From a virus (taxonomy: Duplodnaviria; Heunggongvirae; Uroviricota; Caudoviricetes), in the IMG/VR virus record IMGVR_UViG_2778261673_000009: a DNA stretch of 23,750 bases; one strand, given 5' to 3'. The notes under the pieces are model-generated. The model was not told the origin of the DNA, made no database searches, and was given only the letters and a program-made list of their open reading frames with translations. Positions 8,166-23,750 of the stretch are shown piece after piece. Position 1 is the first letter of the stretch. Every line of letters begins with the position of its first letter. The translations under genes were made by a program, and so were the position numbers.

Positions 8166-8906
8166 CTAGCGTTGCATTTCAGTTACTATGAAATTTTCTT
8201 CTGTAATAGAATTCATTATCTCAAAGTACAATTCTTCAGGTTGAATAAACGCCAACTCTTTGCAAAGGTTGACAATGGTATCACTATAAGTGATACCCAT
8301 CCGAGGATTGAAAAGCTCAAATCTCTTGATGTTTCTTTTGTTTTTTGAGTAAAAGTTTAAAGTGAAATATATTAGCACCTGTCTAAGATCGTAAACACTA
8401 AACTTCCTATCTCCTGATTTTATTTCCACAAGAACATTTGAATAATAAATATCGCCATATGAATTATTTATTACTCCGCATCCATCGAATTGTGGAGACA
8501 CTTCAATTTGGTTTTCCATTCCATATCGAGACAAAATGTTTCTTGCTATTTCCCTTATGGCATTGTACTCAACCATGCTTAAGGGTAGCTTGAAGTTAGA
8601 ACCGTAAGCGAACCGCTGTAGATATTCTTTTGTTTTTTCAAAAACAACCTGAAAATCAGCATTATGGAAGATATCATGTGCTGAAAGAATATTTCTGTCT
8701 AACGAATCATTCTGTATTGCCCTATATAAATTAAATGCGCACTCATTGACAAAGACGTTATTTGACCTATTAGCGCAGTCATCTAGAGGAGGATAAACGT
8801 CCTCGATGAGACTGCCGTTAATGATGCGTATGAAATTATTAGCATTTGGAAGCAATTGATTCCAAAATGAAGTGAATTTTCGAGAAAACGTTAATTCAGA
8901 TATCAT
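8166..8906 (-). CDS. Hypothetical 246-aa protein, partner of the reverse-transcriptase gene; possible PD-(D/E)xK-type nuclease
   Basis: AT-rich ORF whose ATG overlaps the RT stop (ATGA). It contains GDIYYSNVLVEIKSG, that is D-x9-E-x-K. The nuclease reading is motif-level inference only. Confidence 0.6.
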   Translation of the reverse strand: MISELTFSRKFTSFWNQLLPNANNFIRIINGSLIEDVYPPLDDCANRSNNVFVNECAFNLYRAIQNDSLDRNILSAHDIFHNADFQVVFEKTKEYLQRFAYGSNFKLPLSMVEYNAIREIARNILSRYGMENQIEVSPQFDGCGVINNSYGDIYYSNVLVEIKSGDRKFSVYDLRQVLIYFTLNFYSKNKRNIKRFELFNPRMGITYSDTIVNLCKELAFIQPEELYFEIMNSITEENFIVTEMQR

Positions 8907-10531
8907 AGCGCATCCTCAAGATTTCTTGCGGTATGCCTTTTACTTGCCCAATCCCTGTAAATCACCTCTACAAAGTTGAATGTTTTCTTATTATGCTCTC
9001 TCCAGTGCCGTCCTTCATCACCTAAGATGTAACTGGAAACGATCAATAGTCTTCTCTGCAACGGATGCATTGCAGAGAAATTTTTTTTGATATCAGAAAG
9101 CCATGCGTAAGAATTAATTTTTGCCATTGACTGTGTAACTATGTTCTTGACTAAGATGCTTTCTGGATTGTTATTGTATATTTCACTAAGGATTAGGGTG
9201 GATTTTTCTGAATTTTCTTTTGAGAGCATTCGGGCTACATAGGCTAAGTTGAGCTCAGTACTCAAAATATATGAATCTTGTTTAATTAGTGCAGTTATTT
9301 TATCAAGAATAATATCTTTGGTTTCTGTGCTTAATTTTTGCCAGTTGGAGTTAGCTACTTGAATTATAGTTGTAAATATTGGATATAACTCATGCAAGTT
9401 ATTAAACATTACTTTGAAAGCACTACTTATTATTTCATCTGATGTTGCTGAGAATGCCTTTATCAAATGCTTGCTAAAAGATTGGTTAATTTTTGATTTT
9501 TGTAACTCACTACTCAGCATAGCTAACAAGTCAAAATCTTTTAAAGATTCCTTTATCTCTTCATATTCCTCTATCGCATTTGCTGAGTAAGGATCGAATC
9601 TTATAGGAAGACTCATAAATTTAGCCTTCATAGGAGATTCTTCATCTTCATCATTACCATGCAACTTAGCTTTAGTTACTGAAAGGAACTCTTCTTTAGT
9701 AACAATATTGGTTTTTTGTTTCTGTAAAGTTAGCCCTTCATTTTCCATCAGTTTTTTACTAAGCAAAGTTAAAATCTTATGAGCATCCTCTCTAGAGTTA
9801 CAAAAAATAACAAAGTCGTCGACATAACGCTTATAGTTGATTCTATTCATAGACAATAATTTATCAATAGAATCTAGAGCTAGTTCTGCTAATATTCTAG
9901 AGGCAGGACATCCAACTGGTACTCCATATGATTTTGTTTCACTAAATGTCTGTAGTAATTTCTTGATTTTCCCAGAGTAATCTTTATTGGGGTCTACTCT
10001 ATCTAACGCATTTTCTAAACGGTGGTGATAAATACGCGGATAGAAATCTGCTATATCGCATGTAAGTACATACTTTATTTCATCGTTAGAACATTCAGAG
10101 ATACTGTCTTCTTGATATTTTCTCCAAGAGATCTCTTTATCAAAAAGAGAACCATCAGCAAGGTTTGGTTTAAAGCGATATGAATAAACCTGCGTTTTAG
10201 TAGATCTATTCCTTTCAATATCATCAGCGATTTTTAAAACTAACCCAAGAAAAAAAGCATTCCAGAATGGATCAATTTGGGTCGCCCACCTGTAACCATA
10301 ATAACCAATACTTGAAAAGCTATTAATTATGTTTGGTGGAATCTCGATCCTTTTATTTTCAAAGTCATTAAATGTTTGCATTAATGCAGTTTTTACTTTC
10401 TCCTTATCATCTTCAAATAACCGACTTTCAAATGGGTAAGGGAAAATATCTGTATCGCCGTGCTTTATAATATTTTCCAATGCAAGCTCAAAGCAATTTT
10501 CTAGTTTACTACTATCAAACTCGTTACTCAT
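8903..10531 (-). CDS. Reverse-transcriptase-domain protein with a long alpha-helical C-terminal extension (Abi/DRT-like architecture)
   Basis: 542 aa with RT motifs read directly: CDIADFYPRIYHHRL (motif A-like), YGVPVGCPASRILAELAL (motif B-like) and YKRYVDDFVIF (YxDD catalytic motif, encoded near 9811-9822). About 250 C-terminal residues lie beyond the RT core. Strongly AT-rich relative to its neighbours. Confidence 0.85.
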   Translation of the reverse strand: MSNEFDSSKLENCFELALENIIKHGDTDIFPYPFESRLFEDDKEKVKTALMQTFNDFENKRIEIPPNIINSFSSIGYYGYRWATQIDPFWNAFFLGLVLKIADDIERNRSTKTQVYSYRFKPNLADGSLFDKEISWRKYQEDSISECSNDEIKYVLTCDIADFYPRIYHHRLENALDRVDPNKDYSGKIKKLLQTFSETKSYGVPVGCPASRILAELALDSIDKLLSMNRINYKRYVDDFVIFCNSREDAHKILTLLSKKLMENEGLTLQKQKTNIVTKEEFLSVTKAKLHGNDEDEESPMKAKFMSLPIRFDPYSANAIEEYEEIKESLKDFDLLAMLSSELQKSKINQSFSKHLIKAFSATSDEIISSAFKVMFNNLHELYPIFTTIIQVANSNWQKLSTETKDIILDKITALIKQDSYILSTELNLAYVARMLSKENSEKSTLILSEIYNNNPESILVKNIVTQSMAKINSYAWLSDIKKNFSAMHPLQRRLLIVSSYILGDEGRHWREHNKKTFNFVEVIYRDWASKRHTARNLEDAL

Positions 10532-11708
10532 TCACATTCTCCTTAATAAAAATATAATCTGAATACCACTGCATCATATCACGGCGTTTATCAATATATT
10601 GAGCATGATTATACGTACCTCTAATATTATTCTTATCTATATGAGCAAGCTGTATTTCTATCCAAGCCGAATCATATCCTTTTTCGTGGAGGATAGTAGA
10701 TAAGGAATGTCGAAATCCATGACCAGTAAGTTTTCCACCATAACCAATACGCTTGATAACTTGGTTAATACTCGCCTCACTCATAGGCTTGTTCGGATCG
10801 TTCCGCCCCGGAAAAACATAACTATACTTCCCTGTCATCATCTTGAGTTCATTTAGCAAATCTAACGCTTGAGTCGACAAAGGCACAAGGTGTGATCTGC
10901 GCATTTTCATCCTTTCAGCAGGAATTTCCCAAATAGCGTTATCTAAATCAAATTCTGACCATAATGCCGCACGTAATTCGATGGTTCTAACACCTGTAAT
11001 CATGAGCAATTTCGTGGCAATCAGGACAAGCCGACTTCCGGTATATCCGTTTAAGGCGCGAAGAAAATCAGGTATCTCATTAGCCTTTAAGAACGGGAAA
11101 TGATTTGATTGGTGTACATTGAGGGCGCTTGAAAGATCCGCAGCAGGGTTAAACTCAGCCCTTCCAGTAGCAATGGCATAGCGGAAAACTTCTGAGCATC
11201 GCTGCCGAACTTTGCGCATTTTTTCTAATGCACCGCGCTTTTCGATTTTACGCAGCACATTAAGCAGTTCTAGCGGTTTAATCTCTCCCACTGGCCTTGT
11301 TCCCACATAAGGAAAAATGTCGTTCTTAAACGCTTCCATGATGTCTGATGCATATCCCGCCGACCATTTGGTAGACTTCTGTTGATGCCACTCTCTGGCT
11401 ATCTTTTCGAAGGCGTTCTCTGACTCTGTTTGCAGAGCCAGCTTTTGCTCTTTTCGAACCTCACTAGGGTTCTTTCCTTCTGCCACAAGTTTTCGAGCTT
11501 CATCACGACGGGAACGAGCATCAGCAAGAGTGATCGTTGGGTAAACACCAAGCGAGATCATTTTGGGTTTACCGGCATAGCGATAACGAAATCGCCAGCT
11601 TTTACTTCCATTTGGCTCTACAAGTAAAGACAACCCTTGCCCATCCCCAAGTGTATAGGCTTTAGCTTCAGGTTTAGCACGGCGAATCTGCATATCATTT
11701 AGGGGCAT
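10524..11708 (-). CDS. int: P4-family tyrosine integrase
   Basis: 394 aa with a typical P4-type integrase N-terminus (AKPEAKAYTLGDGQGLSLLVEPNGSKSWRFRYRY) and a C-terminal catalytic region (HGFRHSLSTIL...). It is adjacent to the putative att core. The true start may be the second Met, 15 nt downstream. Confidence 0.9.
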   Translation of the reverse strand: MPLNDMQIRRAKPEAKAYTLGDGQGLSLLVEPNGSKSWRFRYRYAGKPKMISLGVYPTITLADARSRRDEARKLVAEGKNPSEVRKEQKLALQTESENAFEKIAREWHQQKSTKWSAGYASDIMEAFKNDIFPYVGTRPVGEIKPLELLNVLRKIEKRGALEKMRKVRQRCSEVFRYAIATGRAEFNPAADLSSALNVHQSNHFPFLKANEIPDFLRALNGYTGSRLVLIATKLLMITGVRTIELRAALWSEFDLDNAIWEIPAERMKMRRSHLVPLSTQALDLLNELKMMTGKYSYVFPGRNDPNKPMSEASINQVIKRIGYGGKLTGHGFRHSLSTILHEKGYDSAWIEIQLAHIDKNNIRGTYNHAQYIDKRRDMMQWYSDYIFIKENVNE

Positions 11709-11872
11709 GTGTATAGAATTCCAAAATCGAACAGGAACATATACATAATCCTATACACATTTAGTACTGGATTCTACTGGAAAGTTATGGACTAATACGA
11801 ACAGTAAAAACAAAAAATCTTTTATAAAACAGTGCGGTTATGGATAAATACGGATGTTTGAAGAAGTGGAGA

Positions 11873-11890
11873 TGGTGCCGATAATAGGAG
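11873..11890. repeat. Putative attachment-site core, junction copy next to int (ATGGTGCCGATAATAGGA)
   Basis: Direct repeat of 546-563, about 165 bp upstream of the int start. The nearby sequence carries TATACACA-type motifs (11712-11760), also seen inside the other end (620-641), as expected for integrase arm sites. Confidence 0.45.
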
Positions 11891-12033
11891 TAAAACACTC
11901 GATTAATCTCGTGTTAATGCCATCACCTACGACTATTACTAATTGATTGAATCTTATAGAAAAATAATCATTTTCTATGCGTCACAATCAATTTTCACAT
12001 TACAAACGCTCCGACACTTTAGCCGGAGATTTT

Positions 12034-13311
12034 ATGAGATACAAGCCTAACCAATACTTAATCTGTGATTCTTACGGTAACTACTATTTAAGGATCACGC
12101 TGCCTGTGTATATGCAGCCCTTTTTTGAAGGAAAAAGGACGTTTGTCAGAAGTCTACACACAAGTAATCTTCGTGTTGCACGTAGAAAGCGTGATCAGAT
12201 TGCAGATGAATACCATTGCTTACGGGAGAGTGTTGCCCCTGTAAACAGCACAATAGAAAACACGCTGGAACTGTTACGCAGTAAGGCTAAATACGCCAAA
12301 ACAGCTACCAGAGTGCAAGATACAGCGTCTTCGTGTCCGTCATTGCTTAAAATTCTTGAAATCTACCTGACAATTAACAGCACGAAGAAGAAGCCAGCCA
12401 CTTTAGCTAAGGCAAGAAAAGCGGTAGAGATGTTTCTCTCCTACCGTAAAAAGCCTGATATTGCATTGCAAGATGTAAGCCGCACCACTGTTACAGGCTG
12501 GATTGAACACATGCAAAAAACTCTTTCACAACAATCAATTGCAAATTATATCAGCCCAATGGCCCAGCTATGGGAGTTAGCTTCATCACGTTACCACGAT
12601 GCGCCAGAAAGGGCGCTCTCCCCCTGGCGAGGGCATAGGCTTGATGTGGCACAAAGTAGAGAGAGCTACGAGGCATTTTCTAACAAAGAGCTATTGCAGG
12701 TGTTGCAAGTATTTTCCGGTAATTCAGCAGAAAACAAAGAAATGACGGCTTTGTGTCTTATCGGTTTATATACAGGTATGCGGATCAATGAGATAGCAAG
12801 TCTCACAATAGACGATGTGAAAGAGATCGAAGGTGTGCTGTGTTTTGAAATCACACAGGGAAAGACGAAAGCAGCGGCACGTGTTGTGCCTGTACATAGC
12901 CTTATCACTCCGTTGGTGTTGTCGCTGCGTGAAAAGCCTCACAATGGCTTTTTGTTCTATCACGCCAGCATTACAGAGCGTGCTGATGGTAAACGTTCCA
13001 CGTGGCATACGCAGAGATTTACAAGAGCTAAACGAAAGGCTTTAGGGGAAAAGGGAACAGAAAGGAAGGTGTTTCATTCTCTGAGACACGGAGTAGCACA
13101 GCTTCTTGATCGAAATCAAATTCCAGAAGACAGGATCGCCCTTCTCCTGGGCCATACACGCGGCAATACAGAAACATTCCGCACATATAGCAAAAATGCA
13201 GCTTCTCCAGTAGAGCTTAAAAAATATATTGAGCTTTTACGCTACCCTGAAATAGAGAAAGGCTTATCAATCAATAAAAAATCAAATTTAAGGCGTAAAA
13301 CAACGCCATAG
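12034..13311 (+). CDS. Tyrosine recombinase / phage-type integrase of a second element
   Basis: Catalytic motifs visible: TGMRINEI, HSLRHGVAQLL and LLGHTRGNTETFRTYS. The track's longest ORF begins at 11977, but the ATG at 12034 has a GGAG Shine-Dalgarno 6 nt upstream and is preferred. Confidence 0.8.
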   Translation: MRYKPNQYLICDSYGNYYLRITLPVYMQPFFEGKRTFVRSLHTSNLRVARRKRDQIADEYHCLRESVAPVNSTIENTLELLRSKAKYAKTATRVQDTASSCPSLLKILEIYLTINSTKKKPATLAKARKAVEMFLSYRKKPDIALQDVSRTTVTGWIEHMQKTLSQQSIANYISPMAQLWELASSRYHDAPERALSPWRGHRLDVAQSRESYEAFSNKELLQVLQVFSGNSAENKEMTALCLIGLYTGMRINEIASLTIDDVKEIEGVLCFEITQGKTKAAARVVPVHSLITPLVLSLREKPHNGFLFYHASITERADGKRSTWHTQRFTRAKRKALGEKGTERKVFHSLRHGVAQLLDRNQIPEDRIALLLGHTRGNTETFRTYSKNAASPVELKKYIELLRYPEIEKGLSINKKSNLRRKTTP

Positions 13312-13392: not shown

Positions 13393-14070
13393 CTATTGTT
13401 TAAATACTGGTGTTACAACGTCTTGCCCTGGGCTTTTTTGATTTTTCTGTTCTGTTGTATTTACCTGCATTTTAACCTGTCCCCCTACAGATTTATTTGG
13501 TGCTGTTTTTACAGCAATAGCATTAGTGGTGGCCTTAGAGACAAGACGAATTTGCTCAAAATCAAGAGTAAACAATATGCTTTCGCTTGCTTCTTCTTCG
13601 TAAGACATGCCAACTAACACAACGTTGTCATAATTTTTTAACTCAGTGACAAGTAGGAAAGGTTGGCGACTGTCCATCAACTGATTTAGGTATTCAAGCA
13701 TAAGCATACGTCGATTGCCGTTAATTCCAGCATTCTTAATCATATCAGGATTGAGCTTCAATACGGTTTCAGAGATACGCCCTTGTAATGTGAACTTGTT
13801 ATTCCGTATTTGAACATGATCACTAACTTCTGATCCTGATTCGACAGCATAGCTTGTAACGTCTGCATTTCTGCTAACTCTCGTCGATTCCACGCTATCA
13901 AATGATAATGCCTGGTAGTCATTGTAAGCAGCATTTGCACCACTGCCGAGATTAGAGGTAATGATCGCAAAGCCGTTACCCCCTTTAGTTGTTCTACCGT
14001 TGCTATCGTTGCTTGTGCTGTTGATTTTCGCCTCAGTCGGGCGACCAATGGTTAACGGACCCATTGCCAT
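13393..14070 (-). CDS. Hypothetical 225-aa protein, last gene of the structural-type operon
   Basis: ORF with AAGGA about 9 nt upstream of the ATG, co-directional with the upstream genes. No recognisable motif. Confidence 0.55.
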   Translation of the reverse strand: MAMGPLTIGRPTEAKINSTSNDSNGRTTKGGNGFAIITSNLGSGANAAYNDYQALSFDSVESTRVSRNADVTSYAVESGSEVSDHVQIRNNKFTLQGRISETVLKLNPDMIKNAGINGNRRMLMLEYLNQLMDSRQPFLLVTELKNYDNVVLVGMSYEEEASESILFTLDFEQIRLVSKATTNAIAVKTAPNKSVGGQVKMQVNTTEQKNQKSPGQDVVTPVFKQ

Positions 14071-14117
14071 AATTTGTAATCCTTATTTAAGGGGGCTAAA
14101 CAGCCCCACAGTGATGA

Positions 14118-15959
14118 TTAATAGGTTGACCCGCCTGACATAACACCCAGCGTTAATAGCTTGCTAAACTCAGCGGAGGATGCCTTTGATTTGAAGTCGA
14201 TAAATTCGCTCAATCGTCCGGTGTCTGATTCGATAGTTAGCGGCACTTCTGCATTTACTTGTAATTCTGGATTGAAGTTAATAACAGGTGCAAAGGTGTA
14301 AGAAGGAGCCTTGAAAGCTTGTTGTGCTGCACTCTGTTTCAGATTTGCAATGTTTTGTCCTTCGAGACTGTATTGATTTACAGCCTGCGCCCCACCTACC
14401 GTTTCTTCTGGCATAAACCAGCTTTTAATAGTGTTAACCAGGGAATTGCTGTTATCTGGCTTAGTTGTTCCGGTGCCAGCGCCTTTATATTGATCAGGAG
14501 TGAGATTAGAAAGATTCTGCTTCATTCCTTCGTTAGATAGTGGCGGTGCATCACCTAAATTCTTCTGAATAGCTGCCGTCTTCTCGTCGTTTTTCATCAG
14601 CCAGTTGATTGTTTTCATTACGGCGTTAACCAATCCGCCGATAGCCTCGCCTAATTTGGTAAACATTGGCAGCATTGCAACCATGCTCTTTTTAAACTCT
14701 TCAATCACTTTCGGATCAAGAGATTTCATAAAGCCATCAACAAAGGCGATCCCTTGTGAGTCAGAAAGCCCACTAAGTGCATTATTCAGTTCACGGAATT
14801 TAATAACGCTTTCCTGTTGTGCCTGTGTTACCCAGCGCCCTGATTCTCGTTGTTCTCGTGCTGATTGTTCCACTTCTTTAGCGGAGCGTGTCCAGTATTT
14901 AGAGGTGAGCATCAAATCATCAGCCAGATCTTCCAGACGACTACCGATTTGTGCATCTGAATAGCCTTTAGCTACCATTCCCTGAACTGCTTTACTAACC
15001 AGACCAGCCGGATTATCAGCAAAGTCTTTTAGATCCTTTTTAGTTAGGAATCCTTCATTCATTAAAGTATTGATGCCGCTATCGCCGCCCTTCCATTCGC
15101 CTTTCCCTGTTTTCTTATCGACTACATATTCAGCCTCATCATAGCTTTTGGTTGCACGCTCACGCACATCTTTCATCTGATCGAGATACTTACGTTTACC
15201 TTGATCCCCCATCATTGAATCAACGCCGTTTTTATACGCCCATTGCTCAATATTGTTCATCTGGTTAACGTCTACACCGCCCAGCTTCGCACGGCTATAC
15301 AATTCTCCCAGCGTTTCAGCACTGGCAAAGCTGTTAGTAACAAATTCAGAGGCTTTGCTCATAGCCATATACGTAGCGCCAGCGCCTAAGCCACCCAGCA
15401 TAACAGCCGCAGCACCGCCGCCAATACTCCCGCTACCCTTAACAGGTGCATAGGCTTTAGCGTGAGCGTTACGATTGCCATTAATCTTACGTTGTTGCTG
15501 TTGTAGGCGTTTCATTTGGCTATTCATACGTGCCAGACTAATAGCGCCTCTTTCATATTGGAGGGCAATTTCTCTAGCCTGTGCAATAGCTTTATATTGT
15601 TCCGCTACAGAAAGACGGTGCATTGCACTAATGCTTGATCCAACGTCTAAAAGCTTTAAGTCTGCCTTCTCTTTGCGTGCTGCCAGGGCTTTTTGTTCTC
15701 TTGCAACTACACGTTGAGCGGCTAATTGTGCTTTAGCATTAGCTTTATCAGCCTGTGCTTGCTTTTTAGCAATATCGTCTACGTCTTTTTTTGCTTTAGC
15801 GGTTGATTGTTTATGTGTCTTAACACGCAATTCTATATCTTTCACAGCCGCCATTTGTTTACGAAGTTTTTCTACTTCTGCTTTTGCTTTCTCTAATGAT
15901 GGTCGATCAACCTGGAAGGTGACAACGTTTGATAAGCGGCTGACGGTAAGGTCTAACAT
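14118..15959 (-). CDS. 613-aa protein with N-terminal coiled-coil region and Gly-rich hydrophobic segment (tape-measure-, ejection- or scaffold-like)
   Basis: The N-terminal 150 aa are rich in K/A/E/Q heptad-like sequence, followed by GSGSIGGGAAAVMLGGLGAGATYMAM and then a long polar region. The functional class is inferred from composition only. Confidence 0.65.
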   Translation of the reverse strand: MLDLTVSRLSNVVTFQVDRPSLEKAKAEVEKLRKQMAAVKDIELRVKTHKQSTAKAKKDVDDIAKKQAQADKANAKAQLAAQRVVAREQKALAARKEKADLKLLDVGSSISAMHRLSVAEQYKAIAQAREIALQYERGAISLARMNSQMKRLQQQQRKINGNRNAHAKAYAPVKGSGSIGGGAAAVMLGGLGAGATYMAMSKASEFVTNSFASAETLGELYSRAKLGGVDVNQMNNIEQWAYKNGVDSMMGDQGKRKYLDQMKDVRERATKSYDEAEYVVDKKTGKGEWKGGDSGINTLMNEGFLTKKDLKDFADNPAGLVSKAVQGMVAKGYSDAQIGSRLEDLADDLMLTSKYWTRSAKEVEQSAREQRESGRWVTQAQQESVIKFRELNNALSGLSDSQGIAFVDGFMKSLDPKVIEEFKKSMVAMLPMFTKLGEAIGGLVNAVMKTINWLMKNDEKTAAIQKNLGDAPPLSNEGMKQNLSNLTPDQYKGAGTGTTKPDNSNSLVNTIKSWFMPEETVGGAQAVNQYSLEGQNIANLKQSAAQQAFKAPSYTFAPVINFNPELQVNAEVPLTIESDTGRLSEFIDFKSKASSAEFSKLLTLGVMSGGSTY

Positions 15960-15993
15960 ACTGATTGTTTCCCTGTATTATGATTGTTGTTTG

Positions 15994-16191
15994 TTATTGT
16001 TTTTTAGAACAATAATATTGGATTGCTTCGAAAGTGCTGCACCCGGTCTGAAACACACGCTGCCGCACATTATTTGCATCAATTGAAAGCATTCTGCATA
16101 AGGCACTGACATTGATTATTGAGTCATCGCTAATAGCTGCCAGTTCTTTTACAGATTTAAGAATTAATGCCTGTGAATTTTCTGTGTTCAT
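15994..16191 (-). CDS. Small hypothetical protein (65 aa)
   Basis: ORF with a weak ribosome-binding site between the capsid-like gene and the 613-aa gene. Confidence 0.3.
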   Translation of the reverse strand: MNTENSQALILKSVKELAAISDDSIINVSALCRMLSIDANNVRQRVFQTGCSTFEAIQYYCSKKQ

Positions 16192-16355
16192 TGGTTTTCT
16201 CTCACATATATATTTTTATTTGGATTTGTAGACAGTAGAAAAACAAAAAGGGCAAAGAGATTCGTTACTGTATTTGCGCCTACAGGTTAGTTAATCTCCT
16301 TACCCTTATTGCCCCCCGATTATTTCCAGACGTAGGGGAACGTCTTTAACACTTT

Positions 16356-17384
16356 TTACGCTACTGTGATCTGCACAGAGAAGCCAACACCGTGGTTAAC
16401 CACAAGCGAGCTATTCTCGGTCACTACGTGCACTGCGTCGCCGCGATTCGATTCGAAAGCATAGCTGTAATACTCTTTAGCGCCTTGAGACAGCAGATCG
16501 AAGGAACTGGAAGGCGCGCCATAGATAGCTTGGTAAACACCTCCACCCTTAGCGAATTTAGGCACGGCTACAGCGTCAGCGGTCATATGTGCCAGCAGCA
16601 GCGGATCAGTCACTTTGATCAGATCAATGTTAGTTCCTGGAATGGTGAAAGTAGTTACGCCAGGCAGCAGAGAACGCACATTAAACACCACGTTTGCATC
16701 GTCTACAGGGCTTGCATATTGGAACGCATTGACCATGCCAACGCTGTAACGAATAGCGTTGAATGCCGCAGGTTTACAGAACACAACAACACGCTCAATG
16801 GTTGCAGCCTGGCTTTGTGCCTTAGCAATCATATCCGTATGCATCTGATCAAATTGCTTGAATACGGTCATTGTGTTGGTGCTGGATGCGTCAACGGTTG
16901 CAGTCATTGGAGACACACCGAACAGAGTGCTGTAATCGATCAGAACATCGTCAGTTTTCGGCGTATGTGTCTTGCCAGAGAACAGAGAAGCCGCGAGGAT
17001 GCTTTCTTTAGTGCGCTGGAATGCAACATTGTGTTTAGCGATATATTCCGCATACAGATCCGGCAGTGTTTCTTCAATAGAGCTTCCGGCTTTGCGTTTG
17101 CCTTGCACGTCCTGCGGTTTGATCAGGTCTTCACGCAGGAAGTAAGGGATTTCAATCAGCCATTCTTCCCCGTTCTCACGCTTAGTAACGTTATGCTCAG
17201 AGCTAAAACGGCTTGTAGGATGGTTGAACAGAGATTCATTGCTCTCGATAAGCTGGGAAACAGCCACTTTGTGACTTTCTACAGGCACAGGATCAGTAAA
17301 ATCCAGAGTAGACAGTAGGTAATTGCGTGAGTCGTTTAATTCGAACAGTGGAGCAAGATCAACCACTTCATTTCCGATAATCAT
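16356..17384 (-). CDS. Putative major capsid protein, lambda gpE-like
   Basis: 342 aa, essentially the length of lambda E-family capsid proteins. C-terminus ...GFSVQITVA resembles the E-family C-terminal motif as recalled. Preceded by a 124-aa gene, like the lambda D-E pair. GAAGGA lies 10 nt upstream of the ATG. Confidence 0.5.
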   Translation of the reverse strand: MIIGNEVVDLAPLFELNDSRNYLLSTLDFTDPVPVESHKVAVSQLIESNESLFNHPTSRFSSEHNVTKRENGEEWLIEIPYFLREDLIKPQDVQGKRKAGSSIEETLPDLYAEYIAKHNVAFQRTKESILAASLFSGKTHTPKTDDVLIDYSTLFGVSPMTATVDASSTNTMTVFKQFDQMHTDMIAKAQSQAATIERVVVFCKPAAFNAIRYSVGMVNAFQYASPVDDANVVFNVRSLLPGVTTFTIPGTNIDLIKVTDPLLLAHMTADAVAVPKFAKGGGVYQAIYGAPSSSFDLLSQGAKEYYSYAFESNRGDAVHVVTENSSLVVNHGVGFSVQITVA

Positions 17385-17400
17385 TATTATTTATTCCTTC

Positions 17401-17775
17401 TTAAGATGTGAAAACAGAGTGGAAGCCTTCAAGCTGGAAGCCTTTAGCAGCGAGAGCTGCAATAGCAGCTTCTTTTACAGCGCCTTCGGCATTCAGGGCA
17501 TCAGCTTTGATGCAAACGAGTCCGGCATTAGCACGAAGCACGTTAACTGTTTTATTTGAATCAGCAGTTACGAAGTCAGACACAACGACAAGAACATCAG
17601 CGCCGCTAACATATTTAGCGCCGGATGAATCAATGAGGTCGCCGCACGTTACATCTTGTGCAAGTGCTGCAAATTTTTTGCTTTCTACAGCCGCGTAAGG
17701 GTCGGTTGCATAGCTCACTACGTCAGTGATGCTTTTACGATGTGGGAAAACATCGCTTAATTTTAAAATAGCCAT
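17401..17775 (-). CDS. Putative head-decoration-like protein (124 aa)
   Basis: Small Ala/Val/Gly-rich protein immediately upstream of the capsid-like gene. Strong AAGGA ribosome-binding site. Start overlaps the stop of the upstream gene (TAATG). Function assigned by position and size only. Confidence 0.4.
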   Translation of the reverse strand: MAILKLSDVFPHRKSITDVVSYATDPYAAVESKKFAALAQDVTCGDLIDSSGAKYVSGADVLVVVSDFVTADSNKTVNVLRANAGLVCIKADALNAEGAVKEAAIAALAAKGFQLEGFHSVFTS

Positions 17776-17984
17776 TATTTTTCCTTAGATTGTTTGATTT
17801 GTTGAGCTTTAGCATTAATCAAATCTTGGTGAGATGGTTTATTGCTGTCAGCCTTATAAAGACGTTCACACTGTTTCTTTAATTCTGTAGGAGTGATGCC
17901 AAGCGCGTAGGCTGTAGCATTCAACACATCCTCAGTTAGTGTTAACTTTTCATTGCCATATTTCAGGATAATTTCTTGTTTCAT
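17775..17984 (-). CDS. Small hypothetical protein (69 aa), first gene of the structural-type operon
   Basis: ORF translationally coupled (TAATG) to the 124-aa gene. Weak ribosome-binding site. Confidence 0.45.
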   Translation of the reverse strand: MKQEIILKYGNEKLTLTEDVLNATAYALGITPTELKKQCERLYKADSNKPSHQDLINAKAQQIKQSKEK

Positions 17985-18013
17985 AAAATAACGATTCCGT
18001 TATGTTCCGAGTA

Positions 18014-18062
18014 ATAAAAAGCCCCAGGCTATAAGAGGTTCAATCAACAATAGCAAGGGGCT
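18014..18062 (-). terminator. Terminator-like hairpin preceding the structural-type operon
   Basis: GCCCC(AG)GCTAT...ATAGC(AA)GGGGC stem-loop followed on the minus strand by a T run (plus-strand AAAAA at 18016-18020). It sits between the early-type genes and the capsid-like genes. Confidence 0.3.
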
Positions 18063-18990
18063 TATTTATTTTGTATCGGGCAAAATACATATTGTGATAA
18101 GTCAACTTTGAGGAGGTTTAACGTTATCTCTAAGAATACTTTTATAAATACGCTTAGAGATATGTTAAGGGTGAATAACAGGACCGCAGGAGAAATTGGC
18201 TCTTAGGAGGGGCCAACCCTTTGGAATCTACGATCCTGCTATTCGATGCGGGGGCTAAACCGCTGCCTGTTTTTGCTGTGGATGCAACAAAGTAAGGCTT
18301 TAAGGAATCACTATTCCAATTCTAATCTACTCACAGATCAAATTTTAATAGGATTAACTACACCAACAGTAATCTACCGTTTCAGAAAATCGTTTTTACA
18401 ACCAAAGCTTATAGATCCGCATTCTATAAAACCCGTTTTGCTATCAATATTTCCAAAGTTTATTGCACCATTCTTAGCTAAACTCTCTCTACTTGCGGCT
18501 AACGCTATGCAGATGATAGTTTTTTGACAACAACTTAATAGATTATTCTGTTACTAACTTCCGTCATTAAATAAGAGTTTAATGATGTTAGTAAATAGTT
18601 ATAAAATATAACTATCAGTGTAAGGCTCTTTAATGTTTTCGGACAAAATAAGGAGCTTTAGGATAAGCATAGATGAAAAATAAGAGCGGGAAGGGCAAGG
18701 AGATAACACCTACCCGCTTTTATCAAAATTAAGCACAATGCCTAACAACATTCATCAACACAACGTAGAAACAATCAACAATCAAAGAGGGAGTTATGAT
18801 TATTCTAAAACTTCTTGAGAGATGGAAGGTAATATTTGTTAGAGGTTAATGCCACTCAACCTTTGAGGCTATCACCTTCCATATGCAGGGATTTATGACA
18901 ATAGAAGGATTAACGCCAACTAAAATCTTTTTATCTACCCCTAAAATTATTATATAACAAAATCATTATAAATGCAAATGATTTTCATTA

Positions 18991-19299
18991 TCATTTAGAG
19001 AAAATAGCACTTTTTGCTAAATCATCTACTAATTGCTGAATCTCTTCACTTGCAACCTTTAACGTGGTGGCGATGTCTGTGATGATTTGATTACACTGTT
19101 TTGCATCGTGCTCAGATAGCTTTAAATAGCTCACCAGAGAGATAAAATCGTCAAGGCTTACATTCACCTTCATTAAGCTAATAACGCATTGAGAGAGCGT
19201 GTAATCGCATAAATCTGAATAGGCTTGATTTATTCTTGTTTGTAGTGAGATAGTCAGATCTAAAAGTTGTTCCATTGCATTGCTAATATCTTCTTCCAT
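18991..19299 (-). CDS. Small hypothetical protein (102 aa)
   Basis: ORF whose ATG overlaps the stop of the upstream 67-aa gene (TAATG). Confidence 0.5.
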   Translation of the reverse strand: MEEDISNAMEQLLDLTISLQTRINQAYSDLCDYTLSQCVISLMKVNVSLDDFISLVSYLKLSEHDAKQCNQIITDIATTLKVASEEIQQLVDDLAKSAIFSK

Positions 19300-19502
19300 T
19301 ATGCGTATTCTCCTTGTAATGCATCATTAATCATATTCAATACGATGTTAAAAGGTGTCTTGAGCGTCAGCACTTCATCACGGTAACGATCTAATGCTTC
19401 GTAGTCTTCTGTTTCTTTTGCCAGCCGGATTAACTCAGCATAGTTTTTTGCATCAGACAGGATCATCTGAAATAATTGTGTTTCTTGAATATAGCCAATC
19501 AT
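19299..19502 (-). CDS. Small hypothetical protein (67 aa)
   Basis: ORF with AAGGA 8 nt upstream of the ATG. Confidence 0.45.
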   Translation of the reverse strand: MIGYIQETQLFQMILSDAKNYAELIRLAKETEDYEALDRYRDEVLTLKTPFNIVLNMINDALQGEYA

Positions 19503-19560
19503 TATTTTTCCTTTTTTTGAATATTTTCATTGGGCGCTTATACATACGCCCATCATTTTA

Positions 19561-19944
19561 TTAGTTAGAACGTTTGTTAGAAGCTAATGTATCTTCTAAA
19601 TGAGCCATCAGATCGACTTCCGATGCACCACCTACACAATTATTGAAAGCGTTAAATCCCAAAAAATGATGATAGGAGCTAAACCCTAAAAGCTGCCAAC
19701 GTTTCAGAGTGCCATCAGAAATGATAGTTTGTTTTCTTGTTCTTGGGCGAAAGTAAACGCCTGGCATTGACTGGATTATTTCTAATTCTTCATCACTTAA
19801 TTCAGGGGATTCTGTTTCAAGAATAAAGATTATCTCTTCCCCTGGAATTTCGTTATTGGTATGTGTCGGTGGACGTTGTCTTGTTGAATTGAAATTACTG
19901 TTTTTTTCAATACGTTTTAAGTTGTTCTTCTTCTTTCTTCCCAT
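19561..19944 (-). CDS. Hypothetical protein (127 aa)
   Basis: ORF with GAGGG 5 nt upstream of the ATG. Basic N-terminus (MGRKKKNNLKR). Confidence 0.5.
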   Translation of the reverse strand: MGRKKKNNLKRIEKNSNFNSTRQRPPTHTNNEIPGEEIIFILETESPELSDEELEIIQSMPGVYFRPRTRKQTIISDGTLKRWQLLGFSSYHHFLGFNAFNNCVGGASEVDLMAHLEDTLASNKRSN

Positions 19945-20040
19945 TTTCCCTCTTTTTATGTGGATTATAAAAACTGAATGCCATAGTTACGATGAATATC
20001 GCCATAAATGCATTTGCCATATGTATTGCCCGATCTGTTG

Positions 20041-20310
20041 TTATTGATTGTTTGTGATAAACAATTCAAAATCTTTGTTTAATTTCAAAAGACGAAATGT
20101 AGTGCTGTTAATCCCTTCATAATCCAGCACACCGAACGATGTAAAATGATTTAACCAATGATTTACGTGTTGTGCGCTGTAGCCGCCTAAACTACAAAAG
20201 CTAACCACTGTCGGCGGTGAGAACTCTATTTCCAAAATAGCTTTTAAAATGTTGTATCCGCTTTCAGTTATTTCAATAGTTTTGTTTCCTGTAGTGATGT
20301 TATAAGTCAT
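20041..20310 (-). CDS. Hypothetical protein (89 aa)
   Basis: ORF with AAGGAG 6 nt upstream of the ATG. Confidence 0.5.
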   Translation of the reverse strand: MTYNITTGNKTIEITESGYNILKAILEIEFSPPTVVSFCSLGGYSAQHVNHWLNHFTSFGVLDYEGINSTTFRLLKLNKDFELFITNNQ

Positions 20311-20319
20311 TTATTCTCC

Positions 20320-20889
20320 TTAGAATGGTATTGAATCGTATATTTCACTTTTTTCTCTTAGAGATATTATCAGATCGTGAAAAGCCTGTTTCTCAAGATA
20401 GATATTCTTTGAATCTAATGCACGTTTTACAAAATCTTCTGTTTCTTCGTGCGGTGGTTTCTTCTTATCAAGGGAAAGAAGCCAAGTAAAAATTTCGGGC
20501 CGCTCAGGGAACTCTGATTCCTGTGTTTCTTCTTCAACGATGATTTCGGAAACATTCAATATTTCATTAGATTCGTCTTCTTTCTCAGAAGGATCAGGTA
20601 GTGATGATTCTCCTTTTGGAATATCAAGCACTCGATAAAGGTTAGAGCTTCCTGGTCGTGCATCTTTTATAATTAATCCCATTTCGAGCAATTTCTTAAC
20701 CCTTTCTTCTGCTGCTCTTGGTGTTATGCCAAAAACATCGCCTATCTTAGCGTAAGAGGGAAATGCACGATCAAACCCTCTCAAATAGCAGTAAAGGTTT
20801 TTAGCACTATCTGTAAATTTATGCCCGTTTACTTGGCTTATTTTTAGAATCCACATAGGAACTTTTACAAATTGTTCTTCATTAATCAT
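20320..20889 (-). CDS. Putative replication initiator / replisome-organiser with N-terminal winged-helix domain
   Basis: Likely start is the ATG at 20889 (AAGGAG 7 nt upstream; the track ORF begins at a GTG at 20913). N-terminal pattern FVKVPMWILK...SAKNLYCYLRGF...FPSYAKIGDVFGITPRAAEERVKKLLEMGLI is typical of phage and island replication-initiator DNA-binding domains. Acidic C-terminal half. Confidence 0.55.
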   Translation of the reverse strand: MINEEQFVKVPMWILKISQVNGHKFTDSAKNLYCYLRGFDRAFPSYAKIGDVFGITPRAAEERVKKLLEMGLIIKDARPGSSNLYRVLDIPKGESSLPDPSEKEDESNEILNVSEIIVEEETQESEFPERPEIFTWLLSLDKKKPPHEETEDFVKRALDSKNIYLEKQAFHDLIISLREKSEIYDSIPF

Positions 20890-20942
20890 TAAAAATCTCC
20901 TTGATGTAATCACGCTCTACGGCGCTACTATGGTGATAAAAA

Positions 20943-21113
20943 TCACTTGCTTTTGTTTGAGAGTGTTTCAGCCTCTCTTTTCAACATATCAAGAATGTAA
21001 TCTGTAACAGTGATACGTTTACTTCTGGCTTCTTTAAACAACACCTGAAATACTTCATCAGGAATATGAAAGCAAGTGCGTGGTTGTCTTTTCTTTTCTG
21101 TAGTTTCGCTCAT
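20943..21113 (-). CDS. Small 56-aa protein, possible ribbon-helix-helix regulator
   Basis: Not in the ORF track (under 60 aa). ATG at 21113 with GGAG 6-7 nt upstream. Translation MSETTEKKRQPRTCFHIPDEVFQVLFKEARSKRITVTDYILDMLKRE has a strand-helix-helix look. Confidence 0.4.
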   Translation of the reverse strand: MSETTEKKRQPRTCFHIPDEVFQVLFKEARSKRITVTDYILDMLKREAETLSNKSK

Positions 21114-21134
21114 AGTTTTCTCCTTCTCCTGTTA

Positions 21135-21317
21135 TTATTCTTTCTCTGCTTCTGCCTTACGCAGTTCATCAATAATTTTTAGTGCATCGTCAAAACATTT
21201 TTCACGCTCTGGATAACCACAGCGTCGCGCTGTGTTCCTGTTCATCCTTACTTTAAAACGATTAATCTCACCACGTTTCCAGGCTTCAACTACATCTTGA
21301 GAAGTGAAATACTTCAC
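21135..21317 (-). CDS. Small 60-aa protein, first gene of the leftward early-type operon (GTG start)
   Basis: Start codon is GTG at 21317, with AGGAGG 7 nt upstream. Basic small protein. Confidence 0.5.
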   Translation of the reverse strand: MKYFTSQDVVEAWKRGEINRFKVRMNRNTARRCGYPEREKCFDDALKIIDELRKAEAEKE

Positions 21318-21486
21318 TAATTAACCTCCTATTCTATTTGGTTAAAAGAAAAAACACCTTGCAAGCCTTGTTGGGCTTCAAAGTGCGGTGCATTGGTTTA
21401 ATTACTTAGAGGATAAGAATGTTTTCTGTCCCTAATATTACTTTACCACGACTAAAAGCTTTTGTCAACCCCTGGCCATAAAAATA

Positions 21487-21511
21487 TTGATCATTTTCAG
21501 TGTGTTATAAT
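21487..21511 (+). promoter_or_regulatory. Candidate extended -10 promoter (TGTTATAAT) reading rightward into the ORF-poor region
   Basis: TGT-TATAAT at 21503-21511 with TTGATC 13 nt upstream. The upstream hexamer is too close for a standard -35, so the call rests on the extended -10 alone. Confidence 0.3.
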
Positions 21512-21618
21512 TTTTCTTAGCAATTCGTGCTCTTACGAGTGTTCCTATTCTTCCTTATTCTCTAAAACGCTCTAAAACGCGTTCTAACGAGGTATTTGAT
21601 AAAAACAATACATTCCCT

Positions 21619-21656
21619 TATGTAGAGGTTGTTTAGCTCGCCAGAGGCTTATTTAA
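21619..21656. repeat. Repeated element, copy 1 (GTTTAGCTCGCC-N3-GGCTT-ATTTAAG-GGG)
   Basis: GTTTAGCTCGCCAGAGGCTTATTTAAGGGG recurs at 21797-21832. The tail AAGGGGCTTATTT..TTGTAT also recurs at 18052-18076. Confidence 0.5.
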
Positions 21657-21796
21657 GGGGCTTATTTTGTATTTGTTAGGTATATGAAAAGGAGATGATA
21701 GATAAAATCTAATTTCAGACATCTTATAAAATACCTGTAAAGCTCTCAGAAGCTCTGTAACGAGCTAATCTATTACCGCTAAGTGTTTCCCTGCCT

Positions 21797-21832
21797 TATA
21801 TACGTTTAGCTCGCCTACGGCTTGATTTAAGC
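21797..21832. repeat. Repeated element, copy 2
   Basis: GTTTAGCTCGCCTACGGCTTGATTTAAGCGG, a direct repeat of 21619-21656 with few mismatches. Confidence 0.5.
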
Positions 21833-22301
21833 GGTAGAATCTTATTTAACCTTCAACTACTAAAACCATTCTTTCTTTTTTGTTTGTTGTTGGTTGTTGT
21901 CTGTGTCTATGTGCTAACATCGCTAACGCGTAGCACACAAGGTTATTGCACAAGTAAATTTCAATCGTTAGATGGTAGTTAGTTAATTATCGTTCTGCGC
22001 ACAGCGCAAGACTATTTAGCCTTACGCAAGCCGTAGGCTATTTGCACATAGTAGATTACATATTCGTTGTGAGCGGCATTAGCGAACATAGATCTACTAA
22101 CTAACATCAACAAACAAAAACTATGTGTTATGACAAGCAGTCTAACGACTAACACTCTAACTTGTGCAAGGTTCTGGCGAATGCCAATAGATTAAGGGAT
22201 AGTCAAGGACTCCCCTAACGGGTACCCCTATAATTATTCTTTAAAGATAAAAGAATTTATAAAAGATAATTTAATTGTAGTTTGATAGTTGATCTAATAG
22301 G

Positions 22302-22435
22302 TAACAAAATTCTGTAGGGGTGGCTAACAGTTTTCTGTGGGGGTGTATAACATAATTCTGTTAGGGTTGGGGTAACAGTTTTCTGTTAGGGTGCATATTT
22401 CTTTAAAAGTTAAGGATAACAGAATTCTGTGGGGG
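22302..22435. repeat. Iteron array: five 19-bp direct repeats TAACA-N3-TTCTGT-N-GGG(G), each with an internal ACAG-N4-CTGT dyad
   Basis: Units start at 22302, 22325, 22348, 22373 and 22417, giving spacings of 23, 23, 25 and 44 bp. The unit at 22417 contains the perfect palindrome ACAGAATTCTGT. Putative origin of the second element. Confidence 0.6.
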
Positions 22436-23262
22436 TAGTTCACAGTGACCTACCGTTACATCCATTTATCACATAACATCTGTGCAATGATCTTCTAAAA
22501 GTGTTTCTTGCTACCAAAATTAAACATCTAAAACAGGCTTAAATTCAAGATTAATTGATGATTAATCCTTATGTAATTCCATACTAAAAATTCAATGAAA
22601 AGTAGCTTAAAAGTGCAATTCTTACTTTCTTCACTTTTACATCACTTTCGCAAAGCCTTGTGTAATGCGGCTTACAGAGCACTATCAGAAATTGTTGATT
22701 AAAAATCAATCTATTATTTGTCGAACAAGTTTCTTTCACGTGTTGAAAATTTATGTTTAAATTTGCTTTCAATCTTTAATGTGCAATCACTATCAACATA
22801 AAAATAAAAACCTTCTATTATATTTCATAGCATACAAAAGTCAATAGAAGCCCTCTCGTGCTCCTACGTAAAAAATCCACCACTTTTCCCCTGATACATC
22901 AACTCAAGGCGTTCTATGTGTTCCTTAGTGCATATTACGATTATTATGTTAAATGGATTTTGGCCTATATTTTGACCTGCACCCGCATAAACACTGGTTT
23001 CATCGCTTACAGCCCTTGTGAGACGTGGTGCTGTTTCTAGCATCTGATCCGACATAAAACCGATCATTCTCGTGTTTAGTGAAAGTTTAGTGAGAGACAT
23101 TACAGAAAGGCTTTCTGTGTAATGATTTAATAGGTAAAAACGATGTTGATTACGCAAGAAAATTCCTTGCTGATATTTGGGGATTCTGGATTTTCCAGAT
23201 CGGGGGGCGCTAAAAATCGCGTTAAGCACCTCTCGCAATCTAGCCATAAGGGAAGGGATATA

Positions 23263-23305
23263 GGTATTTAGATGTATTTATAGCTATTTATGGCTATTTA
23301 TTTTT
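23263..23305. repeat. Four tandem copies of a roughly 10-bp AT-rich unit (nnTATTTAnn)
   Basis: GTATTTAGA TGTATTTATA GCTATTTATG GCTATTTATT, at helical-repeat spacing. A nearby pair CCCTTAAATCCCC / GCCTTAAATACCCC lies at about 23393-23430. Confidence 0.4.
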
Positions 23306-23596
23306 TATTTACCTTTATTAAAAAATAACCTTATAAATCAATAAGATACAGAGCTATCTGTTTATATTTTAATCAATTAAATCAAGTTTAATACCCTTAA
23401 ATCCCCTGAAAATAGCCTTAAATACCCCAATAATTAATTTTAAGGTTTTCCGTGTTCTCTTCTGCATTATGAAAATGCAAAATAAGGCACAAAACAAGCT
23501 CACAGACGCATTAAACACACATCACCTATGCATCCCTATACCAAGCAATGAAAACAGCGTTAGAATGCGTCCTGTTGCGTTCTGGAGATTTTCAGA

Positions 23597-23750
23597 AATC
23601 CTCTCTAAGCCATTTCAACTCACTAAGGAGTTTTCTTTCTTCGTTCTCTCGTTGCTTTCGCTCTAGCCAGGCTTTTCCTTCTGGCGTAGACAGGAACTTA
23701 CGAGCGTGAATCTTGCGGTTATTCCGTTTGATAGCTGCAATGTTTTTCAT
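23597..23750 (-). CDS. Small ORF starting at or beyond the window edge (possibly partial)
   Basis: The minus-strand ATG sits at the last three bases of the window and reads MKNIAAIKRNNRKIHARKFLSTPEGKAWLERKQ... to a stop near 23597. Any upstream signal is outside the window. Confidence 0.25.

Follow-up and report, generated by a model that had tools for sequence, protein, structure and literature searches.

Two tandem satellites at thrW

The window, meaning the whole stretch of 23,750 nucleotides that was analysed, is Escherichia coli chromosome at the thrW integration site (tRNA-Thr, beside proA), where two elements lie in tandem. A P4-like satellite comes first, with genes for an alpha primase, an Icd-like protein, delta and psu and, at 10524-11708, an integrase. 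The variable region of this satellite (8166-10531) holds a reverse-transcriptase defence system, composed of Drt8 (4.9e-166) and an RT-associated PD-(D/E)XK protein (5.5e-69). The second element, of about 12.5 kb, has as its other boundary thrW itself, which lies about 600 bp past the end of the window; a tRNA scan of the window returned none. Between two divergent integrase genes sits a 21-bp copy of the thrW 3' end, the junction of the tandem satellites. The second element encodes, within 13393-17775, a Dit-like protein, a 613-aa tape-measure-like protein and a major capsid protein (Phage_cap_E), with a 124-aa protein encoded upstream of the major capsid gene, as well as several small proteins besides the 189-aa protein, termed Rep here, that is the candidate initiator. 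No portal or terminase was recognised in it, and no helicase, primase or polymerase is recognisable. None of the related genomes that are free of insertions has an annotated gene between 21318 and about 23590, and the repeats considered here fall inside this stretch. The features of the second element are as follows.

11871-11891: distal att repeat of the second element, the 21-bp copy of the thrW 3' end
11977-13311, + strand: tyrosine integrase of the second element
20320-20889, - strand: Rep, 189 aa, candidate initiator
20943-21113, - strand: 56-aa protein, directly upstream of rep
21135-21317, - strand: 60-aa protein, first gene of the leftward operon
21440-21468, - strand: sigma-70-like promoter match facing the 60-aa/56-aa/rep operon (TTGACA-17-TAAAGT with TG; consensus match only)
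22229-22300: A+T-rich tract directly upstream of the array, 72 bp, 82-90% A+T, candidate unwinding element
22302-22320, + strand: iteron 1, TAACAAAATTCTGTAGGGG
22325-22343, + strand: iteron 2, TAACAGTTTTCTGTGGGGG
22348-22366, + strand: iteron 3, TAACATAATTCTGTTAGGG
22373-22391, + strand: iteron 4, TAACAGTTTTCTGTTAGGG, a unit duplicated in strain 1410D004 (six copies there)
22392-22416: A+T-rich spacer between iterons 4 and 5, 25 bp
22417-22435, + strand: iteron 5, TAACAGAATTCTGTGGGGG, the consensus copy, holding a perfect 12-bp palindrome
22436-22457, + strand: single class 3 iteron unit, TAGTTCACAGTGACCTACCGTT, abutting iteron 5; the cognate repeat of the 208-aa Rep class
23199-23244, + strand: 46-nt phi92-like stretch, candidate packaging-signal mimic

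The array itself, which is shown directly, consists of five direct + strand copies of the 19-bp unit TAACANNNTTCTGTNGGG (TAACA-N3-TTCTGT-N-GGG(G)) at 22302-22435, with start-to-start spacings of 23, 23, 25 and 44 bp. This satisfies the geometry of an iteron-type origin, which calls for at least three direct repeats of ~17-22 bp about two helical turns apart. A pattern scan with shuffles upheld the original prediction in the number of repeats, their coordinates and their spacing: allowing up to two mismatches, TAACANNNTTCTGTNGGG occurs five times in the 23.75-kb window, every time within the array, and the shuffle control gave a mean of 0.18 expected occurrences, with none of 100 shuffles reaching five. 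The further claim on the internal dyad was slightly overstated: the ACAG-N4-CTGT arms are perfect in three copies (iterons 2, 4 and 5), with one arm mismatch each in iterons 1 and 3, and it is the full 12-bp palindrome, ACAGAATTCTGT, that is found in iteron 5. Missed altogether were the 72-bp A+T-rich tract, the A+T-rich spacer and the unit of foreign class at 22436-22457.

No open reading frame of at least 40 aa was found overlapping the array, and an Rfam scan of 17700-23750 returned one sub-threshold chance match only, hence no known RNA and none at the array. The DnaA box TTWTNCACA is absent from 21318-23590, as is the IHF consensus WATCAANNNNTTR from 22100-22600. Such sites are common, though not universal, in plasmid iteron origins, and their absence fits a helper-dependent or otherwise DnaA-independent origin.

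Several smaller observations concern the surrounding non-coding DNA. In most of the loci examined, the conserved right flank starts with the class 3 unit at 22436-22457, and the bases right after this unit (CGTTACA) form a half-site of the class 4 iteron. Short repeats are found at 21550-21840, namely GTTTAGCTCGCC-N4-GGCTT in two to three copies and CTCTAAAACG in two. In many relatives, a gene for a serine recombinase of the resolvase family is inserted between the candidate origin and thrW (L003 4785-5336; L009 2512-3063; L012 2632-3189; L028 1889-2428), and other small genes or IS elements are sometimes inserted in the same interval, which has the look of a cargo hotspot.

DNA similar to 21800-23750 was found in 742 of 5,426 complete E. 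coli genomes (about 14%), and a scan of one genome per species gave just two loci, so that other species add no breadth. The idea that this segment is a plasmid replicon was rejected, because no true plasmid replicon matched it and 742 E. coli chromosomes did, which indicates a chromosomal island; the matches among plasmid records were to two wrongly filed chromosomes and to a segment of a single E. coli plasmid of 166 kb. Eight iteron matches in IMG/VR were likewise rejected as evidence of packaging, as they are apparently prophage-type calls from isolate genomes, judged by contig names.

The candidate initiator and the classes of repeats

The array lies 1,413 bp from the ATG of rep at 20889, in keeping with the roughly 1.4 kb to an initiator-like gene that the original prediction had given. 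That layout had been described as more distant than usual; the gap is conserved throughout the family and is its normal layout rather than an anomaly.

In the predicted structure of Rep (mean pLDDT 64.7), residues ~8-90 form a winged helix and 130-180 a three-helix C-domain; the acidic linker between them (93-128) is disordered, as is the tip, which ends in YDSIPF. Its best PHROG matches are replication initiation and O-like families (phrog_270, 1.2e-8, and others), the O-like matches being weak. In Pfam, HTH_36 alone was reported for the window's Rep, at 19.9 bits against a cut-off of 25 and thus below threshold, with neither RepA_N nor Phage_rep_O reported for it; across the Rep N-domains, HTH_36 is the best family, at 19.9-32 bits. 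Fold searches with Rep return mostly transcription factors, and in structural comparison DnaD and RepA score no higher than the DNA-binding domain of LexA, so the winged helix is structurally generic. The label "LexA family transcriptional regulator" that PGAP places on homologues was therefore discounted, since it reflects this generic fold alone and the Pfam domain Peptidase_S24 is absent from Rep.

Across both types of C-domain, 93 of about 100 full-length homologues end in YDS(I/L)PF or (E/D)DFD(I/L)PF; the window's Rep carries the YDSIPF tip (20320-20340), and the other C-domain type ends in EDFDIPF. The tail of E. coli SSB ends in DFDDDIPF, and its DDDIPF tip docks primase, chi and many other proteins (PMC5872125, PMC3632105). 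It is conceivable that the Rep tip mimics this C-terminal docking peptide, an inference made from sequence alone.

The strongest evidence linking Rep to the repeats is comparative. In a sample of 25 related satellite loci from E. coli genomes, in each of which the N-domain class and the matches to five iteron consensuses were scored, the Rep homologues fall into five N-domain classes, each joined to one of two C-domains, and N-domain class pairs one to one with iteron class in all 25 loci, at the same cassette position. The classes are listed below.

Class 1 (that of the window): 12 loci, TAACAGAATTCTGTGGGGG, 5-6 copies
Class 2: 2 loci, TAGGAACTCATTTCCTAGGT, 3-4 copies
Class 3 (208 aa): 7 loci, TAGCTCACAGTGACCTACCCCC, up to 9 copies
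Class 4 (224 aa): 2 loci, TGTAACGAnnCGTTACA, 4 copies
Class 5: 2 loci, GGTATCAGACTTGATAGGGG, at least 3 copies (5 by eye in L028)

Each of the five repeat types has an internal dyad of its own. Both C-domain types are found in class 1 and again in class 2, which shows that the type of repeat follows the N-domain rather than the backbone or the remainder of the protein. For class 5, the pairing was predicted before its loci were fetched, and the prediction held. The 25 loci are mutually related, so that the effective evidence amounts to about seven class/backbone pairings, that is, five class pairings and two cross-backbone repeats.

The boundaries of the exchange are sharp, as the swapped DNA is precisely the array: the conserved flanks stop at about 22283 and restart at 22436. 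An A+T-rich tract equivalent to 22229-22300 precedes the array in every related locus examined, and wherever a locus was inspected by eye, this tract is followed first by the cognate array. Copy number differs within a class, as it does in iteron origins, and the layout of n units, an A+T-rich gap and one more unit is common to classes 1, 2 and 5.

The covariation is shown, and binding is inferred from it in the absence of binding data. On this basis, the five repeats are almost certainly binding sites for the 189-aa Rep, and the Rep N-domain and its iteron cassette form a matched, exchangeable pair, of which there are at least five types in E. coli. One observation does not fit a simple model of one Rep and one origin, which leaves unexplained the extra non-cognate arrays of some relatives (L004 4280-4500, L005 4260-4500, L022, and L028 7110-7220), those of L004 and L005 sitting behind a second A+T-rich tract. 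They could be composite origins, remnants of cassette exchange, sites for the initiators of co-resident satellites, or decoys.

Chimeric genes in virulent phages

When phage genomes were searched by tblastn with the 189-aa Rep, a 328-aa protein encoded by Mt1B1_P17, a virulent phage, matched the first 105 residues of Rep at 99% identity. Proteins of this chimeric type are encoded in the following phages.

Mt1B1_P17: QNJ49226.1, L015 4001-4987
BI-EHEC: L016
inny: inny_184, L026 1414-2517
muut: muut_154, L027 1135-2133

Each chimera consists of a first Rep-type winged helix, a second one of class 2, and a C-terminal nuclease domain of GIY-YIG type. The first domain varies, being of class 1 in Mt1B1_P17 and BI-EHEC, of class 4 in inny and of class 5 in muut, and the identity of the Rep-type domains to the satellite classes is given as 83-100% over all. 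The nuclease domain matches phrog_681 (endonuclease; 2.4e-18) and Pfam MUG113 (21.2-22.6 bits against a cut-off of 22.3), with a weak match to T5orf172; the second domain matches Phage_rep_O below the cut-off (E 0.011-0.014). At the DNA level, Mt1B1_P17 is 99.2% identical to the rep gene of the window over 355 nt, starting 41 nt upstream of the rep start codon, and muut is 100% identical to satellite rep over 316 nt. Phage and satellite DNA being this nearly identical, the exchanges must be recent.

A BLAST search of the five iteron consensuses against 50,697 phage records gave no match (E up to 10, roughly 18 nt or more), so that the targets of the chimeras' DNA-binding domains are not in phages. 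For the same reason, that no phage record contains any iteron, the possibility that the chimeric protein is the phage's own initiator was rejected. The existence of the chimeric genes is shown; cleavage is inferred by analogy to ICP1 Odn, and the phage chimeras are candidate origin-directed nucleases that probably cut these origins. Just upstream of the chimeric nuclease genes of muut (L027 916-1083) and inny (L026 1194-1376) lie homologues of the 56-aa protein, with 44-46% identity, a two-gene arrangement that the satellite therefore has in common with these two phages.

All four chimera phages belong to the Stephanstirmvirinae (Phapecoctavirus or Justusliebigvirus), and two further features of the second element lead to the same group. 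The stretch at 23199-23244 is 93-96% identical to phi92 318-363, a segment lying across the right-hand end of that phage's left direct terminal repeat (1-343); some 60 further phage records match this stretch as well, most of them with Stephanstirmvirinae names. The best full-length phage matches of the satellite capsid are major head proteins of phAPEC8 type, at 25% identity, 100% length and E ~1e-8. It can thus be inferred that virulent phages of the phAPEC8/phi92 type are the likely helpers, or at least adversaries, of the second element.

A probable iteron origin among rival readings

The original prediction took the repeats to be iterons of the second tandem element, the 189-aa protein to be their partner and the array to be a likely origin for that element. 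The first claim is supported; the second is supported by comparative evidence, namely the covariation of N-domain and iterons in 25 of 25 loci; and the third is supported with origin activity inferred from anatomy and from the analogy with PLE RepA, its origin and Odn. The array is likely to be the core that confers specificity on the replication origin of a phage satellite of about 12.5 kb integrated at thrW. Replication is an inference that rests on the covariation, the A+T-rich anatomy, the PHROG matches to initiator families, the phage chimeras and the PLE RepA/ori/Odn analogy.

In the proposed mechanism, of which every step is inferred, Rep would act as a dimer whose N-terminal winged helices bind the dyad of every 19-bp unit. 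The loading or multimerisation of Rep on five close sites would then destabilise the 72-bp A+T-rich tract, the spacer before the last unit, or both, after which the C-terminal helical domain and the D(S/F)(I/L)PF tip may recruit helicase and primase or other parts of the host or helper replisome. The phage nucleases, carrying two copied Rep N-domains, would cut satellite origins as ICP1 Odn cuts those of PLEs.

Several points weigh against the origin reading: the element encodes no replication enzymes, Rep is small and its winged helix generic, the Pfam matches are below threshold, a gap of 1.4 kb separates rep from the array, DnaA and IHF sites are lacking, and non-cognate arrays exist. Specific binding would also be consistent with three alternatives, each of which accounts less well than an origin for the anatomy, the family-level matches and the phage nuclease.

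The best-surviving rival, which remains unlikely, is that the array is an operator bank, with the 189-aa protein acting as a transcriptional regulator (a master repressor or activator) and the repeats controlling a promoter. In its favour, homologues are named "transcriptional regulator" or "LexA family" by PGAP and other sources, the hits of the fold searches are mostly transcription factors, and covariation proves specific binding and not replication. Against it, no gene starts within about 0.9 kb on either side, and the operon has its closest promoter-like site at 21440-21468. Furthermore, five to nine repeats in the same orientation, beside an A+T-rich tract and in variable copy number, are the anatomy of an origin and atypical for operators, and the family-level matches are to initiators. 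An operator would also be an odd target for a phage nuclease, compared with the documented targeting of origins (PMC8263062).

A packaging site, at which the protein would serve as a small-terminase-like factor steering the helper terminase to satellite DNA, is very unlikely. Small terminases do combine an N-terminal winged helix with a C-terminal partner-binding domain and bind repeated sites, and satellites often encode a small terminase of their own; however, neither Pfam nor PHROGs gives a terminase match, and there is a better, separate candidate at 23199-23244, where the boundary of the putative helpers' terminal repeat is copied. That the array is a partition or centromere-like site, or instead a decoy titrating a protein of the phage or of a rival satellite, is likewise very unlikely: Rep does match the centromere-binding protein TubR weakly (E 0.03) and the non-cognate arrays of some relatives could serve as decoys or incompatibility determinants, but the TubR match is not significant, the element is integrated and encodes no partition NTPase, and a cognate array is never missing and is in every case the first to follow the A+T-rich tract.

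The origin reading can be set beside known systems, of which the experimentally characterised PLE satellites of Vibrio cholerae and their phage ICP1 are the closest. The Odn protein of ICP1 is a T5orf172 nuclease whose N-domain is similar to the RepA_N of PLEs; it cuts PLE origins at the iterons, and PLEs escape it by swapping RepA_N and origin together (PMC8263062). In both cases a satellite of a virulent myovirus has semi-palindromic iterons in a non-coding region; the N-domain of the initiator covaries with the iterons and its C-domain is conserved, a modularity seen here in the occurrence of classes 1 and 2 with both C-domains; and a phage chimera joins the DNA-binding domain of the initiator to a nuclease of the GIY-YIG superfamily (T5orf172/MUG113-like). 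Among the differences, the host here is E. coli and the phage group is Stephanstirmvirinae, and the Rep N-domain is not Pfam RepA_N by sequence, its best family being HTH_36. At least five specificity classes exist here, whereas two replicon groups are described for PLE (PMC8263062), and the satellite, unlike PLE, encodes its own capsid, tape-measure-like and Dit-like proteins. The chimeras, in contrast to Odn, carry two tandem Rep-type domains, the first of them swappable, and the identity between phage and satellite domains, given as 92-100% in this comparison, is 42% for Odn.

The origin of phage lambda, like the array here, has iterons of about 19 bp with an internal dyad, in about four to five copies spaced about 23 bp apart, beside an A+T-rich tract. 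Rep resembles lambda O in being a two-domain initiator, with specificity in the N-domain and recruitment assigned to the C-domain, and in its weak O-like PHROG matches. However, the lambda iterons lie inside the O gene and the array here is non-coding and 1,413 bp upstream of rep; moreover, Phage_rep_O is not met and no P-like helicase loader is recognisable. The origins of SaPI and PICI islands have iterons flanking an A+T-rich stretch and island-specific pairs of initiator and origin, and the same holds here. By contrast, SaPIs have a helicase as Rep, an origin directly 3' of rep and a primase as well, whereas Rep here has no NTPase domain and there is no primase. With the RepA_N initiators of Gram-positive plasmids (PDB 4pql, 4pta) and the N-terminal domain of DnaD there is no significant sequence similarity, and the structural scores of Rep against 4pql/4pta and DnaD are weak, no better than those of generic winged-helix regulators.

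A bolder reading takes these elements together as one joint claim, for and against which the evidence seems to us fairly balanced. According to it, the array belongs to a set of at least five origin cassettes that can replace one another, in a family of ~12.5-kb E. coli satellites that has apparently not been described and parasitises virulent phages of the phAPEC8/phi92 type (Stephanstirmvirinae). This family would use a minimal initiator whose SSB-like tip (DFDIPF or YDSIPF, compared with DFDDDIPF in SSB) recruits SSB-client replication proteins, would be packaged by way of a copied boundary of the helper terminal repeat, and would be attacked by nucleases with two stolen initiator domains. 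The literature searched holds no description of thrW satellites of this kind, of satellites of Stephanstirmvirinae or of origin-directed nucleases in E. coli, which is not proof of their absence.

Iteron origins are textbook material, and the array alone is ordinary; the unusual part is its context. Across hundreds of E. coli genomes, the array is exchanged together with the DNA-binding domain of Rep, the two forming a matched pair, and virulent phages from a single subfamily bear nearly identical copies of such domains, joined to a nuclease. If the interpretation is true, it points to helpers for the abundant but unstudied thrW/leuX island, and it would provide five orthogonal pairs of initiator and origin ready for use. 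The mimicry of the SSB tail, if real, may be a new way for an initiator to recruit the replisome. E. coli would also possess a satellite-phage arms race of the PLE/Odn kind, so far known from Vibrio cholerae alone. Such a second case would be independent of the first and more elaborate, and its host is genetically tractable.
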